DNA of 64,000 nucleotides, from NCBI GenBank assembly GCA_018901125.1, contig JAHIFE010000178.1:4989-68988 (forward strand), written 5' to 3'. The position numbers and the translations under genes were made by a program. Shown piece by piece: positions 16,851 through 60,813 of the stretch. How positions within the stretch are numbered: the stretch's first letter is position 1; every line of letters starts with the position of its first letter. Below the pieces are notes generated by a model, which worked only from the letters and a program-made list of their open reading frames with translations, did not search any database and was not told the DNA's origin. This DNA is from Pseudomonadota bacterium (GTDB lineage Bacteria; Desulfobacterota; Desulfobacteria; Desulfobacterales; RPRI01).

Positions 16851-19163
16851 TTATTTTCCATATATTACAACTCGGTTTCTTCCTTCTTTTTTGGCTTTAT
16901 AAAGTGCATAATCCGCCGTTTTAATTAAATCTGTAGTATTGTTATCAGTGGCAGGAATTATGGTGCTAACTCCAAAACTCATTGTAACCACGCTGCAATT
17001 TTGAGAGCCGGAATGATTAATTCCAAGAGCTTCAATCTTAGAACGCATCTTATCGGCAATGTTGTCCGCACCCTTTTCATCTATTCCCGGCAACAGGACA
17101 GCAAATTCTTCTCCGCCATAACGTGCTACTAAATCGGCAGGTCTTTTGACGACAATCTTTAAAGTATTTGCCACCTTTTTAAGACAGTCATCACCTTTTT
17201 GATGGCCGTATGTGTCATTATATGCTTTGAAGTAATCGATATCACCCATAATCATTGATACAGGCTTAGATTCACGCATCATACGCTTCCACTCAAACTC
17301 AATAACTTCATCCAGATGTCTTCGATTTGCCACACCGGTTAGCCCATCAAGATAAGAAAGTTTTTTCAACTCTTCTTCCAGTTTCTTCCGATCTGTAATA
17401 TCTCTTATGATTCCAACTGCAAGCCACTTTCCTTTCAACTTAACAGAAGATAATGAAAGTTCAATCGGGAATTCATCGCCGCCTTTTCTTACTGCTTCAA
17501 GTTCAAGGGTTTTCCCAATCGCATTTCCTTTGCCCGTTATTTTAAATTTAGTAAATCCTTTCAGAAAAGCTGCGTGGAATTTTTCAGGAGAAAGCAATTT
17601 ATGAAGATTTTTACCCAACACTTCCTCAGAGGTGTAACCCAGAATTTTTTCCGCAGCAGCGTTCCAGTATGAGATCGCACCATTATCATTCATCATTATA
17701 ACAGCATCGTTTGCAATAGAGGTAATCGTGCTAAACATTTCCTCATTTTCAATAATGGCTGTTTCGCATTGTTTATTTTCAGTTATGTTGGTATAAAGCA
17801 TCATCAGATCAATGATGTTACCTTTTTCATCACTAATATGATCAGCTCTTAGAAGAATATTTAACAGGTCGTTGTCGCGGGTTTTCATTTTAACCTCGCC
17901 CTTCCATGAATTGCCCTGTATGATAGAATTATATACTTCTTTTGCTGTTTTGTAGTCAGCATGCAGTATGGACGGTCCGCCGAGCCTGTTTAATTCCTCT
18001 GTTGTATAACCGAATAATTCCAAAAAAGCATTGTTACTGTAAACAGCTTTTCCCGAAATATCGGCCAATATAATAGCATCACTCGTGCTTTCAACCACTT
18101 TATTGATACGAAGCAGTTCAATATTTTCACTTTCAATCTGCTTTTCAACTCCTCCCAGAAACCTGTAAAATATTGCAAATAAAATTATTGCCAATACTAT
18201 ACAGATCGCCGTGACAATTGCTATTGTTATCTTGTGGTGCATTTTCAAATCGGTAATATCACGTACAATTACCATTGTTCCTATAAGCCGGTTCCCTGCA
18301 TCTGTAACTGGAAAATATTTGCTGTAATAATTCCGATTATTAAATGTAACCTCAACATTGCTGGTTCCAGGGGCGCCGTCTTTATCTATAAAATTCGTGG
18401 CAAGTTTATCCGGAAAAACTTTTGATGTCTGGTCTATGATAACTACAGACGGAAAACGGTCCCACCTTGCTTCGCGGCCCAGCATTTTCATGCCTGTTTC
18501 CCAGTGTTTTCTATCAAGATATTGTTTATTGATCAGAATATAAATATCAAGACCGAATATTTTATTAAATTTTTGTGTGATACTATCTATTTCTTCAGCA
18601 AGTTCCACAAAACCGATTAATTTTTTATCTTCATACCAGGGCATGACAGCCCTTAGGGCAAATGTACCAAACGTACCTAATTCAATCCCGGAAAATTGTT
18701 TCCCTGTTTTTTCAGCATTAATTGTGGTAAATCGATTTGTTATATCACCATACTTATCAGGATTATTAACACGCAGAATGTTTATACGGTCCGGACCTGT
18801 AAAATAAAAATGTGTAATACGAAAGTCTTCTTTAAGTTCTTCAAATAAACTTTTGGTGATATTGAATAATTCAGCCCTATCCTTCTTTATCAAAGCCTTT
18901 TTTATCTCTTTATCTTTAGAAACCACCTTTAATGCTGCACACATCAAGTGAGCATCGCTTTCTATTTGCAAGGTAAACAGATTATGCAAGGATTGTATGT
19001 TATTAAACACATCATTAATAACATAATCTTTATGAAAAATTTGAAAGATATATACAAATGAAATCAAAAAAATGGCCAATGCCAGCATTAACGGAATCAG
19101 AATATGGTATTTCAATTTGAAAATTTTCATTTGTGCAAGGCCAAGTCCTTTCTTCGAATCCAA
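16851..19163 (-). CDS. Membrane diguanylate cyclase (Cache-like periplasmic domain, 2 PAS, GGEEF)
   Basis: Two TM segments, two PAS domains, DGLTGVANRR, DIDYFKAYNDTYGH, RPADLVARYGGEEF (active A-site plus RxxD I-site). Alternative start at 19130. Confidence 0.93.
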   Translation of the reverse strand: MDSKKGLGLAQMKIFKLKYHILIPLMLALAIFLISFVYIFQIFHKDYVINDVFNNIQSLHNLFTLQIESDAHLMCAALKVVSKDKEIKKALIKKDRAELFNITKSLFEELKEDFRITHFYFTGPDRINILRVNNPDKYGDITNRFTTINAEKTGKQFSGIELGTFGTFALRAVMPWYEDKKLIGFVELAEEIDSITQKFNKIFGLDIYILINKQYLDRKHWETGMKMLGREARWDRFPSVVIIDQTSKVFPDKLATNFIDKDGAPGTSNVEVTFNNRNYYSKYFPVTDAGNRLIGTMVIVRDITDLKMHHKITIAIVTAICIVLAIILFAIFYRFLGGVEKQIESENIELLRINKVVESTSDAIILADISGKAVYSNNAFLELFGYTTEELNRLGGPSILHADYKTAKEVYNSIIQGNSWKGEVKMKTRDNDLLNILLRADHISDEKGNIIDLMMLYTNITENKQCETAIIENEEMFSTITSIANDAVIMMNDNGAISYWNAAAEKILGYTSEEVLGKNLHKLLSPEKFHAAFLKGFTKFKITGKGNAIGKTLELEAVRKGGDEFPIELSLSSVKLKGKWLAVGIIRDITDRKKLEEELKKLSYLDGLTGVANRRHLDEVIEFEWKRMMRESKPVSMIMGDIDYFKAYNDTYGHQKGDDCLKKVANTLKIVVKRPADLVARYGGEEFAVLLPGIDEKGADNIADKMRSKIEALGINHSGSQNCSVVTMSFGVSTIIPATDNNTTDLIKTADYALYKAKKEGRNRVVIYGK

Positions 19164-55149: not shown

Positions 55150-56595
55150 GTGAAATCACCTTGGTTTAACCTTTGGTTTTCGGAGGGCATTATAAAACCG
55201 CAAATGCAATCGGGAAATACTATCCAACCGCTGAAATCTTCACCTTTCCGCAGGTTCGCAAAAGCGCTTGCAGAAAAATTCAAGATACAAATCTTCGCAG
55301 AAGCCGTTCAGGACGGCTTCGATGGTGCGGTATTATATGCCGATATTATTCAGAAATCATCCCAGCCATTGTTGGTTGCTAATCCGGACGCAACAATAAT
55401 ATCCTGCAATGAAGCTTATCTGAAAATCATGGGCTATACAAAAGAAGAATTTGAGAAAATCGAATGTGCTATAGACTTCACTCCGCCGGAGTGGCAGGAA
55501 ATCACCAGGGATAGCATGGAAGAGTTGCACCGTACAGGCCGTCCGGTAAGGTATGAAAAAGAATATATAAGAAAAGACTCAAAGCGTTTTCCGGTCGAAA
55601 TATTTCTTCATTTTATGAAAGATGAAAATGGCCTGCTGTATTGTTATTACGCTTTTACTACAGATATTACACAACGAAAGCTTGCGGAAGCGGCAATGAT
55701 ACAGGCAAAACTGCGTTATCGCAATTTGTTTGAAGAAGCTCCGGTTATGTATGTTATCACCCGCAACCAGGGTGGCGTGCCTGTTATTGTTGACTGCAAT
55801 GCGCTTTTTTTGAGCACTATGGGATACACAATTTCCGAAGTAATGGAGCATCCTCTGGGCGATTTTTACACGCCGGAATCTTGCGCCGAAATGCTGGAAG
55901 GCGGCGGTTATCAGCGTGCATTGTCGAACCGGTTTACAAGTGAAGAACGCAAGCTTTTAACACGGGATGGCAAAATTAAAGAAACATTGATGAGAGCCGT
56001 TCCGGAAAGTGATGCTGATGGCAACGTAACGGGAACGCGGGCAATGTTTATCGACGTAACTGCGCAGAAGCAGGCAGAAAGACAATTGCTGGCTTTGTCG
56101 TTGCGGCAGGAGGCTATCCTGTCGGCTATTCCCGATATTGTAATCGAAGTGGATGTTGATAAAGTATATACTTGGGCAAACGAAGCCGCTAAGGAATTTT
56201 TCGGCCCAGACGTTATAGGAAAAGAAGCTTCTTTCTATTATGCAGATGAGCAGGACACTTACAATCTGGTGAAACCGCTTCTAAGTGGTATCGAGGATTC
56301 AATTTATCTTGAAAGCCTCCAAATAAGAAAAGATGGCGAGAAACGTCTGCTGGCCTGGTGGTGCCGGGCGTTAAAGGATGAACATGGAAATGTGAGGGGC
56401 GCGCTTTCCACAGCACGCGACATCACCGAGCAAAGGCAGGCAAAAATACAGCTCGGCAGTAAAATCGAGGAGCTGCAGCGCTGGAATAAAGCAGTCATGG
56501 GCCGCGAAATGCGCGTTATTGAACTAAAGCGCGAGGTAAACGAACTTTTGGTAAAATCAGGGCAGCCAAAGCGTTATAATGATAATGAGCAGTGA
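55150..56595 (+). CDS. Three-PAS-domain protein without a catalytic output domain
   Basis: Three PAS/PAC repeats ending in DITQRK / DVTAQK / DITEQR, then the coiled tail ELQRWNKAVMGREMRVIELKREVNELL. Start uncertain. Confidence 0.8.
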   Translation: MKSPWFNLWFSEGIIKPQMQSGNTIQPLKSSPFRRFAKALAEKFKIQIFAEAVQDGFDGAVLYADIIQKSSQPLLVANPDATIISCNEAYLKIMGYTKEEFEKIECAIDFTPPEWQEITRDSMEELHRTGRPVRYEKEYIRKDSKRFPVEIFLHFMKDENGLLYCYYAFTTDITQRKLAEAAMIQAKLRYRNLFEEAPVMYVITRNQGGVPVIVDCNALFLSTMGYTISEVMEHPLGDFYTPESCAEMLEGGGYQRALSNRFTSEERKLLTRDGKIKETLMRAVPESDADGNVTGTRAMFIDVTAQKQAERQLLALSLRQEAILSAIPDIVIEVDVDKVYTWANEAAKEFFGPDVIGKEASFYYADEQDTYNLVKPLLSGIEDSIYLESLQIRKDGEKRLLAWWCRALKDEHGNVRGALSTARDITEQRQAKIQLGSKIEELQRWNKAVMGREMRVIELKREVNELLVKSGQPKRYNDNEQ

Positions 56596-59500
56596 TGACA
56601 TGTACAATAAAACATCTACTGAAAATACTTCCAAACTTCAAAACCCATCCTCTTCCCGCTGGATTGCGATAGCTCCTTTTTTATTGCTGTTTATGCTCAT
56701 TATTATAGCTGCTACCGAATATTTATATATCAGGCAGCAATATCGGGCAGCCAAAAAAGCGGCGCAAACAGAAATTTCTTCTGTAGCCAATCTTAAAGCA
56801 GGCCAGATTGAAAACTGGTATAAAGATCGTATAAAAGATGCCGAGATTGTTTCGAATAATATAATACTTCAAATGAAAGTGCAGCTTTTATTTTCCAACC
56901 CCGACAACGCAGATCTTAAGAAAGAAATACTTCAATGGATGGTAACTCAGCAAAAATATTATGAATACAAGCTGATGGTGCTTTATGACTCTGAGGGCAG
57001 GTCGCTGCTGTCTGTTCCTGAAGGCCTGGCCGCTTTTGATATTTCGCACAACCAATATTTTCAGGCTGCTTTGCGATCAAAAACTATTTTGCCGATTGAT
57101 CTGCACAAGGATCATGATTCCTGGAAATATATTCATCTTAGTATATATATTCCGATCAGAAATAATATTACGATCAGAAATAAACAGGGCGCAAATGATT
57201 TGGCGAAAGGGGCCTGGATGATACAGATTGATCCCTATCAGCTTTTGTATCCTCTGGTTCAAACATGGCCATCAGCAAGACAAAGCGCTGAAACTCTTCT
57301 TGTGCGGCGCGAAGGCGATGATGTCCTGTTTTTAAATGAACTGCGACACCGCCAGAATACAGCACTTGAGTTGCGGTTACCAATTTACCCCGATCGGCGG
57401 CTTCCTGCAGCTATGGCTTTAACGGGCTATGAAGGTATTATTGAGGGTCTTGACTACCGGAATGAGCAGGTACTTGCCGATGTGAGAAAGATAAAAGGGA
57501 CAAACTGGTTTATGGTAGCAAAGATTGATCGCAAAGAAATTTACGCCGGTATGTACCAACAGATATTGCTAAACGGGATCGCGCTTCTTGCCCTGCTTTT
57601 ATCCGCATCACTTGCAATAAGACTGCTGACAAGACAACACGATAACCGGATGCTCAAAGAACAGCTTGCCGCAGAGCAGGAGCGAAACGCCGCCATAGAA
57701 GCTCTTGCAGAAAGCAGGCAAAAAACCGCATTTTTTGCAGATGTGATCGAAAAATCATCGCAGCCTTTTCTTGTTGGTTATCCGGACGGTCGAATCGGCA
57801 TGTTTAACGATGCTTTTACAAAATTGCTTGGTTACAGCAAAGAGGAGATTGAAAAAATAAACCAGGCTCATCATTTTGCTTCAATACGGTCTGCGGATGA
57901 AGTGTCTAAACTGCAGGAATTAAATCGCACAGGTCAACCTGTCCGGTATGAAAAAGAATACATTAGAAAAGACGGCATGTACGCCCCAATCGAACTGTTG
58001 GTGCATCTGGTAAGAAAGGAAAATGGCCAGCCGGACTACTATTATGCTTTTATAACCGATATCACAGAGCGCAAGCTTGCGGAAAAAGCCGTTCTGGAAA
58101 GCAAAGAACGCCTGCAACTGGCACTTACGGCGGCTAATCATGGAATGTATGATCTTGATATAGAAACCGGCGAGGCCAAAACCAATCCTGAATATGCAAT
58201 GATTCTTGGCTATGATCCGGCCACCTTTGTGGAAACAAACGACAAATGGATCGAGCGTCTCCATCCGGATGACCGCGAACGCGTTTCCAAAACATACAGG
58301 GCATACATCGAGGGCAAACTTCCAACCTATCAGGTAGAATTTCGGCAACGAACAAAATCCGGCGATTGGAAATGGATTCTTTCTTTAGGAAAGATTCTTG
58401 AATATAGCGTTGAAGGCAAGCCGCTTCGTATGCTGGGGACGCATACCGACATCACCGAACGAAAACAGGCGGAAGAAAAAATCAGTAACAGCGAAACTCT
58501 TCTTAAACAAACCCAGAGATTAAGCCATGTTGGAGGTTGGGAGTATGATGTGGAAAGCAGGAGCATGTTATGGAGTGATGAAGTCTATAATATCCACGGC
58601 GTATCAAAAGACTATGATCCAAGCAATCCGGACTGGCATATAAACTTTTTCACTCCTGAAAACCGGGAAAAAATAAACAAGGCATTTATGCAGGCCCTCG
58701 AATACGGCGAGCCCTATGACCTTGTTTTGCAGTCAATAAAGGCAGATGGAACGCTGATATGGGTGCGGACGAGCGGACAGGCCGAACGCAAAGAAGGCAA
58801 GATAACCCGTGTGTTCGGCAATATAATGGATATCACGGAACGCATGCAGGCAGAGGAGCAGATGCTTGCCGCTAACGAAGAAATACGGATGCTGCTAAAA
58901 GATGCCGAGCAATCGCGCCTGGCTCTATTAAGCGTTGTTGAGGACCAGAAGGAGGCACAGAGGCAAATCCAGAAATTAAACGCCGAACTGGAGCAGCGCG
59001 TGCAGGAACGTACAGCCAGGCTCGAAACGGTAAATAAGGAACTTGAGGCATTCAGCTATTCCGTTTCTCATGATTTAAGGTCTCCGCTGCAGCACATAAC
59101 CGGTTTTGCAGAACTGCTGAACAAACGAGCGTACCAATCCCTTGATGAAAAGAGCAGACACTATATAAAAATAATAAAGGATTCTACTGGCCGGATGGGA
59201 GCGCTGATTGACGATCTTTTGTCATTTTCGCGAATGGGCCGTGCCGATATGATGAGAAAGAATGTAAACCTTGACAATATAGTAAAGGCAGTATTGGACG
59301 ATTTAAAGACAGAAACAAAAGAAAGAAATATCGAATGGAAAATCAATCCGCTTCCGGAAGTTACCGGAGATCCAGCCATGCTGAAACTTGTTTATGTCAA
59401 CCTTATATCCAATGCAGTTAAGTTTACAAAAGAGTGCGAAAAGGCTGTTATCGAAATAGGAAGTACATTCCGGAATAAAGGTGAAATATTTTTCTATGTA

Positions 59501-59791
59501 AAGGACAATGGAGCAGGTTTTGATATGAAATACGTTGATAAACTCTTTGGCCTTTTCCAGCGCCTTCACCGCTCCGAAGATTTTGACGGCACCGGCCTTG
59601 GTCTGGCCAATGTCCGCAGAATTATATACCGCCACGGAGGAAAAACCTGGGCAGAAGGAGAGGTGGACAAAGGAGCTACGATTTATTTCAGCTTGCCTGG
59701 GGAACAGGGATCAGGGATCGGGGATCGGGGATCGGGGATCGGGGGACAGGGAACAGGGGATCAGGATGTCGGTATCTTGAGGGAAGAGTAG
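56579..59791 (+). CDS. Membrane Cache-PAS-PAS-PAS sensor histidine kinase (phytochrome/CphA-type H-box) with a repeat-derived C-terminal tail
   Basis: Two TM, three PAS, FSYSVSHDLRSPL, NLISNAVKF, DNGAGFD, GTGLGL; tail GEQGSGIGDRGSGIGGQGTGDQ encoded by a 7-bp repeat. Confidence 0.93.
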   Translation: MIMSSDDMYNKTSTENTSKLQNPSSSRWIAIAPFLLLFMLIIIAATEYLYIRQQYRAAKKAAQTEISSVANLKAGQIENWYKDRIKDAEIVSNNIILQMKVQLLFSNPDNADLKKEILQWMVTQQKYYEYKLMVLYDSEGRSLLSVPEGLAAFDISHNQYFQAALRSKTILPIDLHKDHDSWKYIHLSIYIPIRNNITIRNKQGANDLAKGAWMIQIDPYQLLYPLVQTWPSARQSAETLLVRREGDDVLFLNELRHRQNTALELRLPIYPDRRLPAAMALTGYEGIIEGLDYRNEQVLADVRKIKGTNWFMVAKIDRKEIYAGMYQQILLNGIALLALLLSASLAIRLLTRQHDNRMLKEQLAAEQERNAAIEALAESRQKTAFFADVIEKSSQPFLVGYPDGRIGMFNDAFTKLLGYSKEEIEKINQAHHFASIRSADEVSKLQELNRTGQPVRYEKEYIRKDGMYAPIELLVHLVRKENGQPDYYYAFITDITERKLAEKAVLESKERLQLALTAANHGMYDLDIETGEAKTNPEYAMILGYDPATFVETNDKWIERLHPDDRERVSKTYRAYIEGKLPTYQVEFRQRTKSGDWKWILSLGKILEYSVEGKPLRMLGTHTDITERKQAEEKISNSETLLKQTQRLSHVGGWEYDVESRSMLWSDEVYNIHGVSKDYDPSNPDWHINFFTPENREKINKAFMQALEYGEPYDLVLQSIKADGTLIWVRTSGQAERKEGKITRVFGNIMDITERMQAEEQMLAANEEIRMLLKDAEQSRLALLSVVEDQKEAQRQIQKLNAELEQRVQERTARLETVNKELEAFSYSVSHDLRSPLQHITGFAELLNKRAYQSLDEKSRHYIKIIKDSTGRMGALIDDLLSFSRMGRADMMRKNVNLDNIVKAVLDDLKTETKERNIEWKINPLPEVTGDPAMLKLVYVNLISNAVKFTKECEKAVIEIGSTFRNKGEIFFYVKDNGAGFDMKYVDKLFGLFQRLHRSEDFDGTGLGLANVRRIIYRHGGKTWAEGEVDKGATIYFSLPGEQGSGIGDRGSGIGGQGTGDQDVGILREE
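59701..59764 (+). repeat. 7-bp tandem array GGA(T/A)C(G/A)G, about 9 units
   Basis: GGAACAG GGATCAG GGATCGG x4 GGGACAG GGAACAG GGGATCAG. Confidence 0.92.
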
Positions 59792-59797
59792 TAATTT

Positions 59798-59890
59798 ATG
59801 CATATTAATAGTTATCAGGTTATTGCGGCGTGGCAGAAATCAATAAGAAAGAATGTTATAAAATGTTTTCCCTGCCCCCCGTTCTCTTGA
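59798..59890 (+). pseudogene. Internally deleted four-helix-bundle gene (30-aa remnant)
   Basis: MHINSYQVIAAWQK matches the start (MHIKNYQDLEVWQK) and SIRKNV matches the end (LQKSIKKNI) of the intact gene at 60402-60767. Confidence 0.8.
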
Positions 59891-59895
59891 TCCCT
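59868..59895 (-). repeat. Inverted heptamer arm closing the remnant cassette
   Basis: TTCCCTGCCCCCCGTTC matches the reverse complement of 59737-59753 at 15/17 positions. Confidence 0.75.
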
Positions 59896-59910
59896 ATTTA
59901 AGGAAAATCA

Positions 59911-60354
59911 ATGAATATTTCATTAAATAAAATTTTGTTGGTAGAAGACAATATAAATGATGTGGAACTGGCCATGGAAGCTTTTTCAGAAAACAACATT
60001 GCAAACACGGTTGATGTAGTCCGTGATGGGGAAGAAGCTCTAGAATATCTTAAATACAAAGGTAAATTTTCATCACGATCTTCAGGCAATCCCGTGGTTA
60101 TTTTTTTAGATATCAATCTTCCCAAAATAAACGGGATTGAAGTGCTTAAAGCTATCAGAACTGATCACAAGCTGAAATTAATACCCGTGGTTATCTTTAC
60201 ATCCTCCCGCGAGGAAAAAGATCTTTTTGCAAGCTATAGTCTCGGTGTAAATGCTTATGTTGTAAAACCCATAGATTTCAATGAATTTGTAATAGCAGTC
60301 AGGTCGCTTGGATTATTCTGGGCAATCATCAATGAGCCTCCGCCGGAATTGTGA
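59911..60354 (+). CDS. Single-domain response regulator (Rcp1-type)
   Basis: ILLVEDN..D, FLDINLPKINGIEVL, IPVVIFTSS, YVVKP, FWAIINEPP. Confidence 0.93.
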   Translation: MNISLNKILLVEDNINDVELAMEAFSENNIANTVDVVRDGEEALEYLKYKGKFSSRSSGNPVVIFLDINLPKINGIEVLKAIRTDHKLKLIPVVIFTSSREEKDLFASYSLGVNAYVVKPIDFNEFVIAVRSLGLFWAIINEPPPEL

Positions 60355-60361
60355 GAAGAAA

Positions 60362-60391
60362 ATCGGGTGTCAGGGTCCAGGGGGCAGATAG
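60362..60391 (+). repeat. Upstream heptamer arm of the intact four-helix-bundle cassette
   Basis: CGGGTGT CAGGGTC CAGGGGG CAGATAG directly after the REC stop codon and before SD GGAG. Confidence 0.65.
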
Positions 60392-60401
60392 GAGTGTAAA
60401 T

Positions 60402-60767
60402 ATGCATATCAAAAATTATCAGGATCTTGAAGTGTGGCAGAAAGCTATGGATCTGGTAATTATGTGCTATAAGATAAGTGGTACATTTCCCAAGAATGAA
60501 GTATATGGCCTATCAAGCCAGTTACAGCGTGCTGCCGTATCGATACCTGCAAATATTGCTGAAGGCAGGGAAAGGCGCTACAGTAAAGAGTTCCTTCAAT
60601 ATTTATCAATCGCCTATGGCTCTTTGGCCGAAGTGGAAACGCACATTCATATAGCCAAACGGTTAGGCTATATCAACGAAAACCAATTCAACGAAACGCT
60701 GGGAAAAACATCTGAGATAGGGAGAATGTTAAATGGCCTGCAGAAGTCAATTAAAAAAAATATTTAA
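60402..60767 (+). CDS. Four-helix-bundle protein (23S rRNA intervening-sequence protein / bAvd-like family)
   Basis: YQDLEVWQKAMDL, FPKNEVYGLSSQLQRAAVSIPANIAEG, FLQYLSIAYGSLAEVETH, LGYI, MLNGL; 121 aa from ATG 60402. Confidence 0.95.
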   Translation: MHIKNYQDLEVWQKAMDLVIMCYKISGTFPKNEVYGLSSQLQRAAVSIPANIAEGRERRYSKEFLQYLSIAYGSLAEVETHIHIAKRLGYINENQFNETLGKTSEIGRMLNGLQKSIKKNI

Positions 60768-60778
60768 CAAGCGTTTTG

Positions 60779-60813
60779 CCCATGACGCCCGATCCCTGTT
60801 CCCTGGCAACTGA
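60779..60813 (-). repeat. Downstream inverted heptamer arm of the intact cassette
   Basis: CCCATGA CGCCCGA TCCCTGT TCCCTGG CAACTGA; TGACGCCCGAT pairs with ATCGGGTGTCA (60362-60372) with one G-U. Confidence 0.72.

Follow-up and report, generated by a model that had tools for sequence, protein, structure and literature searches.

Probable in-place decay of a heptamer-armed PF05635 cassette between a histidine kinase gene and a receiver gene in a groundwater Desulfobacterota genome

Background

Short intervening sequences (IVSs) that carry no open reading frame (ORF) and measure about 90-150 nt occur in the 23S rRNA of enterobacteria such as Salmonella and Yersinia. Other IVSs, in Coxiella burnetii, Leptospira and Brucella, contain an ORF for a four-helix-bundle protein (PF05635, also called S23p) inside a stem formed by complementary flanks. 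In the C. burnetii IVS, three tandem heptamers (GACAGAT x3) lie just before the S23p start, in a copy number that varies among strains; RNase III cuts at the first heptamer, and the ORF is reported to be undergoing reductive evolution with deletions (PMC4990558). Heptamer repeats have also been described in intergenic regions, with the units GGGAATC in Xanthomonas and GGGGA(C/T)T in Nostoc/Anabaena, and about 70-75 convergent pairs are found per Xanthomonas genome (PMC4692102). In the literature searched, we found no paper that connects PF05635 genes located outside rRNA with heptamer arrays at their flanks. Here we describe the remnant of such a gene between two heptamer arms. It lies in a 64,000-nt stretch of contig JAHIFE010000178.1 (hereafter the window; all positions without a contig name refer to it) from a Desulfobacterota bacterium. 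The source assembly (GCA_018901125.1, G000 below) is a 4.45-Mb metagenome-assembled genome (MAG) of 241 contigs, recovered from groundwater. The remnant unit, at 59699-59895, occupies the spacer of about 200 bases between a histidine kinase gene and a receiver (REC) gene, and is probably a heptamer-armed PF05635 cassette of the 23S rRNA IVS protein type that decayed in place.

A collapsed twin of the downstream cassette

An intact cassette is located about 600 bp downstream of the remnant, past the REC gene (60355-60805, + strand). It consists of a left arm, a gene of 121 codons (60402-60767) and a right arm, and the gene product is a solid member of PF05635 (23S_rRNA_IVP; 146 bits, E = 5e-43, for a cut-off of 33.8). 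Two direct repeats reported by the repeat finder connect this cassette with the kinase-REC spacer. The first, D3, matches 59797-59844 to 60401-60448 (48 nt, 79% identity); the second, D4, is collinear with the first and matches 59833-59857 to 60740-60764 (25 nt, 80% identity). On the remnant side the two overlap on GCAGAA(A), at 59833-59839. In the intact gene, GCAGAA is present twice, at 60437-60442 (encoding part of WQK) and at 60740-60745 (part of LQK), 303 nt apart. Once these 303 nt, or 101 codons in frame, are taken out, the intact cassette aligns with the remnant from arm to arm, with 109 of 150 positions identical, and the alignment takes in both arms, the leader, both gene ends and the spacer that follows the stop codon.

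All parts of the remnant unit can be delimited on the + strand. The left arm (59699-59765) is composed of about nine tandem heptamers (GGGGAAC AGGGATC ... GGGGATC; TRF period 7, 9.3 copies). Then comes a Shine-Dalgarno-like leader (59780-59797), for which the end-to-end alignment shows homology with its counterpart in the intact cassette, and a 20-codon stretch, ATG CAT ... AAT GTT, which begins at 59798 with the kinase stop codon upstream and the receiver gene downstream. The first 14 codons of this stretch (MHINSYQVIAAWQK, 59798-59839) are those of a four-helix-bundle gene: 34 of 42 nt are identical to 60402-60443, and a tblastn match covers residues 1-23. They end in the deletion junction, where the sole retained copy of GCAGAA(A) marks the overlap of the D3 and D4 families. 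The last 6 codons (59840-59857) encode SIRKNV, close to the SIKKNI of the intact gene, with 20 of 25 nt identical when GCAGAA is included. They are followed by the former stop codon and post-stop spacer (59858-59867), in which the end-to-end alignment places ATA opposite TAA; the frame therefore continues to a TGA at 59888-59890, giving a mini-ORF of 30 aa (59798-59890). Finally, the right arm (59868-59895) holds about four degenerate reverse-complement heptamers (TTCCCTG CCCCCCG TTCTCTT GATCCC), of which 59868-59884 forms a 17-nt inverted pair with 59737-59753 (I8, 15 of 17 positions complementary). A preliminary description of this DNA, made from the letters alone, had reported the same sequence, heptamer array and 15/17 inverted arm, all of which we located, and had read them as an internally deleted twin with both arms retained and a breakpoint at GCAGAA; the overlapping repeats and the collinear 303-nt gap bear out this structure.

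The two copies have more in common than their family. Only the remnant and the neighboring intact gene share a start at ATG CAT AT (MHI) together with an end in QKSI(K/R)KN(I/V); the C-terminus of the remnant is found in no other copy, and the intact G000 gene is the closest relative at both ends.

To assess this resemblance we scanned 8.9 million positions, covering both strands of the assembly, with the two ends of the intact gene. For its first 42 nt, the remnant is the best non-self match (34/42), the runner-up reaching 28/42; for its last 25 nt, the remnant scores 20/25, a level attained by just three non-self sites in the genome. The 5' and 3' matches are adjacent, ordered and in frame. 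In addition, none of 1000 dinucleotide shuffles of the segment between the arms attained the observed alignment score (z = 4.8). The remnant is thus homologous, at the nucleotide level, to a bona fide PF05635 member at both ends, collinearly and in frame. Two other candidate alignments were rejected. An alternative placement of the A-rich 3' piece, obtained by local alignment with cheap gaps (11/13 to 60719-60731), is at chance level, out of frame, and would need a second deletion; a weak PF05635 match at C1:21713 (near 16.7 kb in the window) falls in a signal-peptide region without arrays.

Contigs from other sequencing efforts contain the same junction. A Logan contig (X4) spans 59813-60162 with no mismatch, and in X9, a coal metagenome sequenced in a different study, a contig of 707 nt matches 59750-60381 without gaps and with 19 mismatches. 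This ungapped match means that a strain about 97% identical bears the same deletion; its kinase likewise reads into the same heptamer array. Among the Logan contigs X1-X10, which are fragmentary, no full-length allele or clean empty site was found, and a scan of metagenome contigs with REC returned only relatives of at most 61% identity, outside the genus. Side differences were noted near the cassette borders: X9 departs from the window in the heptamers of the intact cassette's left arm, from 60381 onward, and X6 and X7 diverge right past the end of the remnant gene (59854) and past the intact cassette (60815). These differences suggest strain-level rearrangement or recombination at the borders of the cassettes.

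We propose the following course of events. The kinase and REC genes would once have been separated by a full-length sister of the intact cassette. A single in-frame deletion of 303 nt (101 codons) took out the body of its gene, and one GCAGAA is left at the join; the endpoints would be two GCAGAA direct repeats, and replication slippage or microhomology-mediated deletion in a twin-like parent could account for this step. Point changes came later: the divergence from the twin is now about 20%, and the TAA stop is lost. The arms can still pair in the predicted fold, and the kinase gene takes its end from the left array. The remnant peptide is probably without function; by analogy with the RNase III stems of rRNA IVSs, the hairpin may act as an intercistronic RNA structure. 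The left array (59699-59765) also contains at least four GGGG runs on its sense strand; judging from the heptamer repeats of PMC4692102, a G-quadruplex of DNA or RNA might form in competition with this hairpin. That the remnant pieces differ from the intact twin by about 20%, a species-level difference, implies that the duplication is old or that the relic has drifted.

The kinase-REC and post-REC junctions in relatives

The upstream gene (ORF 56579-59791, + strand) encodes a PAS/HisKA/HATPase histidine kinase of 1070 aa. Its last 30 codons (GEQGSGIGDRGSGIGGQGTGDQDVGILREE) and its TAG stop, at 59699-59791, are supplied by the inserted element: the array yields a Gly-rich tail of 30 residues with a new stop, and the native end of the protein is replaced. 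The downstream REC gene (59911-60354, + strand; 147 aa; PF00072, E = 6e-19) is flanked by both cassette copies. It has orthologs in nine genomes of the same genus, and a tree of the receiver proteins groups G000, G016 and G007 in a single clade (support 100/99). The kinase gene precedes REC solely in these three genomes.

In G016, the kinase-REC junction is bare (TTGCCGGAGAGATAGGAGAATCTATG, the kinase ending in ...LPER before its stop), and nothing is inserted after REC. In G007, the kinase ends in ...LPGQQGSV before its stop, and two heptamers (GGGCAAC AGGGATC) coincide exactly with the left edge of the array in G000, followed by about 80 nt without a recognizable gene piece; when this 100-nt spacer is aligned to the remnant, the two boundary heptamers are in common and nothing clear beyond. 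After REC, G007 has an empty site, TTGTAA/CAACTGACTATT ATG, which compared with the intact G000 cassette reads TTGTAA/CAACTGACTATTATG; the intact cassette is a clean insertion relative to G007. Since G016 has no cassette at either junction and G007 has none after REC, both G000 cassettes are insertions with respect to their closest relatives. The preliminary description had proposed two independent insertions, one on either side of REC. Two insertions there are; the remnant and its neighbor share specific ends, so that one cassette may derive from the other, and these sequences do not separate independent insertion from copying across the REC gene.

Outside this clade, the region around REC presents further variants. 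Upstream of REC, G006 contains a full-length gene (L015, 1037-1398) that is 76-78% identical to the intact G000 protein and frameshifted, and a different subtype of four-helix-bundle gene follows REC. In G002, only the last 27 codons or so of such a gene (5'-truncated; L017, 1318-1398) are found upstream of REC, joined to an smpB region, and a CTGATAA-type heptamer array, with no gene piece, comes immediately after REC. G010 presents a gene-less hairpin upstream of REC, with a right arm resembling that of G006, and an intact gene after it. The junction upstream of REC is therefore a hot spot, where these genes appear in several states of decay. At orthologous empty hairpins, loss and gain are not distinguishable: a cassette may have decayed, or one may have been inserted elsewhere into a pre-existing hairpin.

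A second gutted copy and heptamer arrays in the genome

The preliminary description had suggested looking for similarly collapsed copies in the rest of the genome, and a second gutted copy was indeed found on another contig (C17:17639-17916). A six-frame profile search detected there MYYLNRDEFDKLYELSREIERMLSSLIRKLSGK, encoded at 17659-17781, a C-terminal fragment of 33 codons from a four-helix-bundle gene (profile positions 85-118, E = 0.012). Arms at 17639-17671 and 17884-17916, complementary at 27 of 33 positions, enclose it. The product of one neighboring gene ends in ...DGYSDVFTIAE, and the other neighbor is a gene that we take to be gmhB-like. Searches with blastn-short and PAM30 tblastn for more remnants were too noisy to reveal any.

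Gene and array are closely associated in this genome: all five solid PF05635 genes of G000 adjoin period-7 arrays, and the unit is different in each. Of the 124 period-7 arrays in total, only about 37 are paired with an inverted array less than 1.2 kb away. Heptamer hairpins without a gene are frequent, and different hairpins use different heptamers. We conclude that decay of four-helix-bundle cassettes accounts for some of the gene-less hairpins, and this is not shown for the bulk of the arrays. A cassette life cycle running from insertion through internal deletion to an empty hairpin, as first put forward, is accordingly plausible, with decay states visible in relatives; its generality does not follow from arrays of which so few have an inverted partner.

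Other arrangements of arrays were also seen. On C75 (1000-6100), C58, C59 and C152 (12400-15300), small accessory genes are bracketed by runs of period-7 arrays of the TTTCCCG, AACTCAA and CCTTGAA types, at intervals of about 0.7-1.3 kb. Judging by their translations, we take these genes to be toxin-antitoxin-like (HicA/HicB, PIN/VapC, RelE, PemK/MazF). The four-helix-bundle gene on C152 has direct, not inverted, flanking arrays.

Decay in place and its alternatives

Several observations weigh against a resident cassette that collapsed between GCAGAA repeats. No full-length allele was found at the exact kinase-REC junction within the G000/G007/G016 clade; close relatives are where the preliminary description had suggested looking for one. 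The microhomology is read from a paralog about 80% identical to the remnant, used as a proxy for the parent, and the 3' site is without GCAGAA in the G006 and G010 homologs, a point against the slippage step. Furthermore, a gene of 366 nt is expected to hold about 16 pairs of identical 6-mers, so that a GCAGAA pair is in itself unremarkable. With regard to the arms, the z-score of the predicted fold is modest (-2.1), and part of the left array (59705-59722) pairs slightly better with 60788-60805 in the right arm of the intact cassette, about 1 kb away (I3, 17/18), than the left array does with its own arm (15/17), so that a different, long-range stem could form around the REC gene.

Profile searches likewise gave no support. 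The remnant peptide has no Pfam match and does not reach the curated cut-off of PF05635. The full family hidden Markov model (HMM), run on the six-frame genome, gives it 7.7 bits (E = 39), and an HMM of the gene ends only (20 columns, built from 84 members) ranks it fifth in the six-frame genome, at 13.1 bits (E = 0.5); both are at noise level. Two other hits of the ends-only model near E = 0.5, on C37 and C231, were dismissed as noise: each falls within another gene, in a different frame, and has no arrays. The preliminary description would have taken such non-significant profile scores as grounds for abandoning the homology. The scores are non-significant because the remnant pieces are too short: the profile test is underpowered at 20 residues, and homology is decided by the pairwise nucleotide evidence and its context.

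A first alternative, itself compatible with an origin by decay, holds that the hairpin, with or without its 30-codon mini-ORF, has been selected as an intercistronic element acting in RNA processing, stability or translational coupling. We consider this improbable, while noting what speaks for it. In the predicted fold of the spacer the two arms pair, forming a long stem of about 26 bp around the remnant in both the minimum free energy (-69.3 kcal/mol) and centroid structures, and this structure is kept in the strain about 97% identical. No promoter or terminator consensus is found in the kinase-REC spacer, which suggests that the kinase and REC genes are probably co-transcribed by read-through. 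The stem of the Coxiella IVS is cut at its first heptamer by RNase III (PMC4990558). There is, on the other hand, no sign of special constraint: polymorphism with respect to X9 is equally dense in the remnant (2 differences in 63 nt) and in the REC gene (14 in 444 nt). G016 works without such an element, Rfam has no family in the spacer region, and the mini-ORF has a drifted stop codon.

It is slightly less probable still that the unit arrived already gutted, the deletion having taken place during copying, through template switching between GCAGAA repeats or abortive gap repair. Both gene ends are preserved along with the arms, in collinear order, and the G000/G007/G016 clade offers no full-length allele at the junction, as such a scenario would have it. 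The final sequence is, however, equally compatible with deletion in situ, and resident genes do decay in place elsewhere, as the G006 frameshift and the G002 truncation illustrate.

Deletion in place likewise remains a better account than mobility of the remnant itself. The preliminary description saw in it a non-autonomous form resembling a miniature inverted-repeat transposable element (MITE); as a mobile element, it would be mobilized in trans by intact cassettes. Inverted arms around an internal deletion do recall MITE derivatives of transposons, and gene-less hairpins abound in this genome. Yet the remnant is single-copy: a blastn-short search of the 4.45-Mb assembly returned only itself. 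There is no evident target-site duplication when it is compared with the empty site of G016, and the arms of different hairpins have different heptamers. No transposase is involved, the full-length twin encoding only a PF05635 protein, a family for which we know of no catalytic role. Nothing shows movement after the deletion, and we regard this part of the description as quite unlikely to be right.

Finally, a chance resemblance or an assembly artefact, conceivable in a MAG of 241 contigs with profile scores at noise level, is hardly credible given a nucleotide match unique in the genome, shuffles that never reach its score, contigs from other runs and from another study that span the junction (X4 and X9), and copies only about 80% identical, which an assembler would not be expected to collapse.

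Gene and arms as a unit across phyla

We extended the analysis to 80 homolog loci from many phyla (L042-L121), 75 of which have flanks of usable length. A period-7 array occurs within the adjacent 110 nt in 62 of these 75 homologs and in none of 65 control flanks taken 600 nt away, and periods of 5, 6, 8 or 9 are seen in the same flanks at only 1-2 of the 75 loci. Complementarity between upstream and downstream flanks exceeds the 95th percentile of mismatched controls at 39 of the 75 loci. Both flanks are periodic in 30 loci, and in 23 of these the unit on the downstream side is the upstream one in reverse complement. Furthermore, similarity between heptamer units correlates with similarity between proteins (none of 2000 permutations was as extreme), and one unit, AGGTGTC, accompanies related genes in MAGs labeled as delta- and alphaproteobacteria, Acidimicrobiia and Acidobacteriota. 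These tests of arrays and units indicate that the gene plus its arms behaves as one unit across hosts. The remnant, with its upstream period-7 array and downstream reverse complement, has the organization of such a heptamer-armed cassette.

Taken by itself, the remnant is an ordinary pseudogene relic, the product of ordinary decay of an IVS-like cassette. Its value lies in providing direct sequence evidence of a gene-bearing, armed cassette that collapsed to a gene-less hairpin and kept its arms; at this locus, the C-terminus and stop codon of the kinase were rewritten as well. The family-wide results support treating the "23S rRNA IVS protein" gene, an orphan for 30 years, and its arms as one unit, in ordinary operons too, and cassette decay suggests a testable way in which at least some of the heptamer repeats between genes may have arisen. 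One may speculate further, and only tentatively, that PF05635 genes and their heptamers make up a selfish unit without transposase, spread across phyla, that inserts at gene junctions and rRNA helices, then loses its gene and leaves hairpins and solitary arrays behind; the protein might recognize its own heptamers, and the remnant would be an intermediate. If true, this pathway would link the ORF-bearing and ORF-less IVSs of rRNA with the unexplained heptamer arrays of cyanobacteria (known as STRR) and Xanthomonas.

Comparison with known systems

The closest described elements are the ORF-bearing IVSs, with which the cassette shares its PF05635/S23p gene, the stem of complementary flanks around it and the tandem heptamers ahead of the start codon. 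In contrast to these, the remnant is located between genes of a signaling operon and not in helix 25 or 45 of 23S rRNA, the site by which IVSs are recognized. Relative to the Coxiella IVS in particular, both of its arms are heptamer arrays, 101 of 121 codons are lost, and the stem is a predicted one.

MITEs resemble the remnant in having retained inverted ends and a deleted interior. Unlike MITEs, the remnant is present once, without target-site duplication or a parent encoding a transposase, and its arms are tandem arrays and not unique terminal repeats. The intact twin protein is also homologous to bAvd, an accessory protein of diversity-generating retroelements, with a PF22296 score of 38.2 bits, just below the cut-off of 40. 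The few kilobases of flanking ORFs that were read showed neither a reverse transcriptase nor a template/variable repeat, and the remnant, for its part, encodes no such protein.

The intergenic repeats of Xanthomonas, Nostoc and Anabaena, and the cyanobacterial STRR sequences, are G-rich 7-nt arrays with G-quadruplex potential, and their unit is much like the GGGGATC observed here. They differ in context: the arrays described here bracket a four-helix-bundle gene or its remnant, and PMC4692102 mentions neither S23p nor four-helix-bundle genes. As for the ORF-less IVSs of enterobacteria, these reside in rRNA and have no recognizable gene ends, and are likened to the remnant by form, not by sequence; they are gene-less extended hairpins of a size that the remnant would approach upon further decay.

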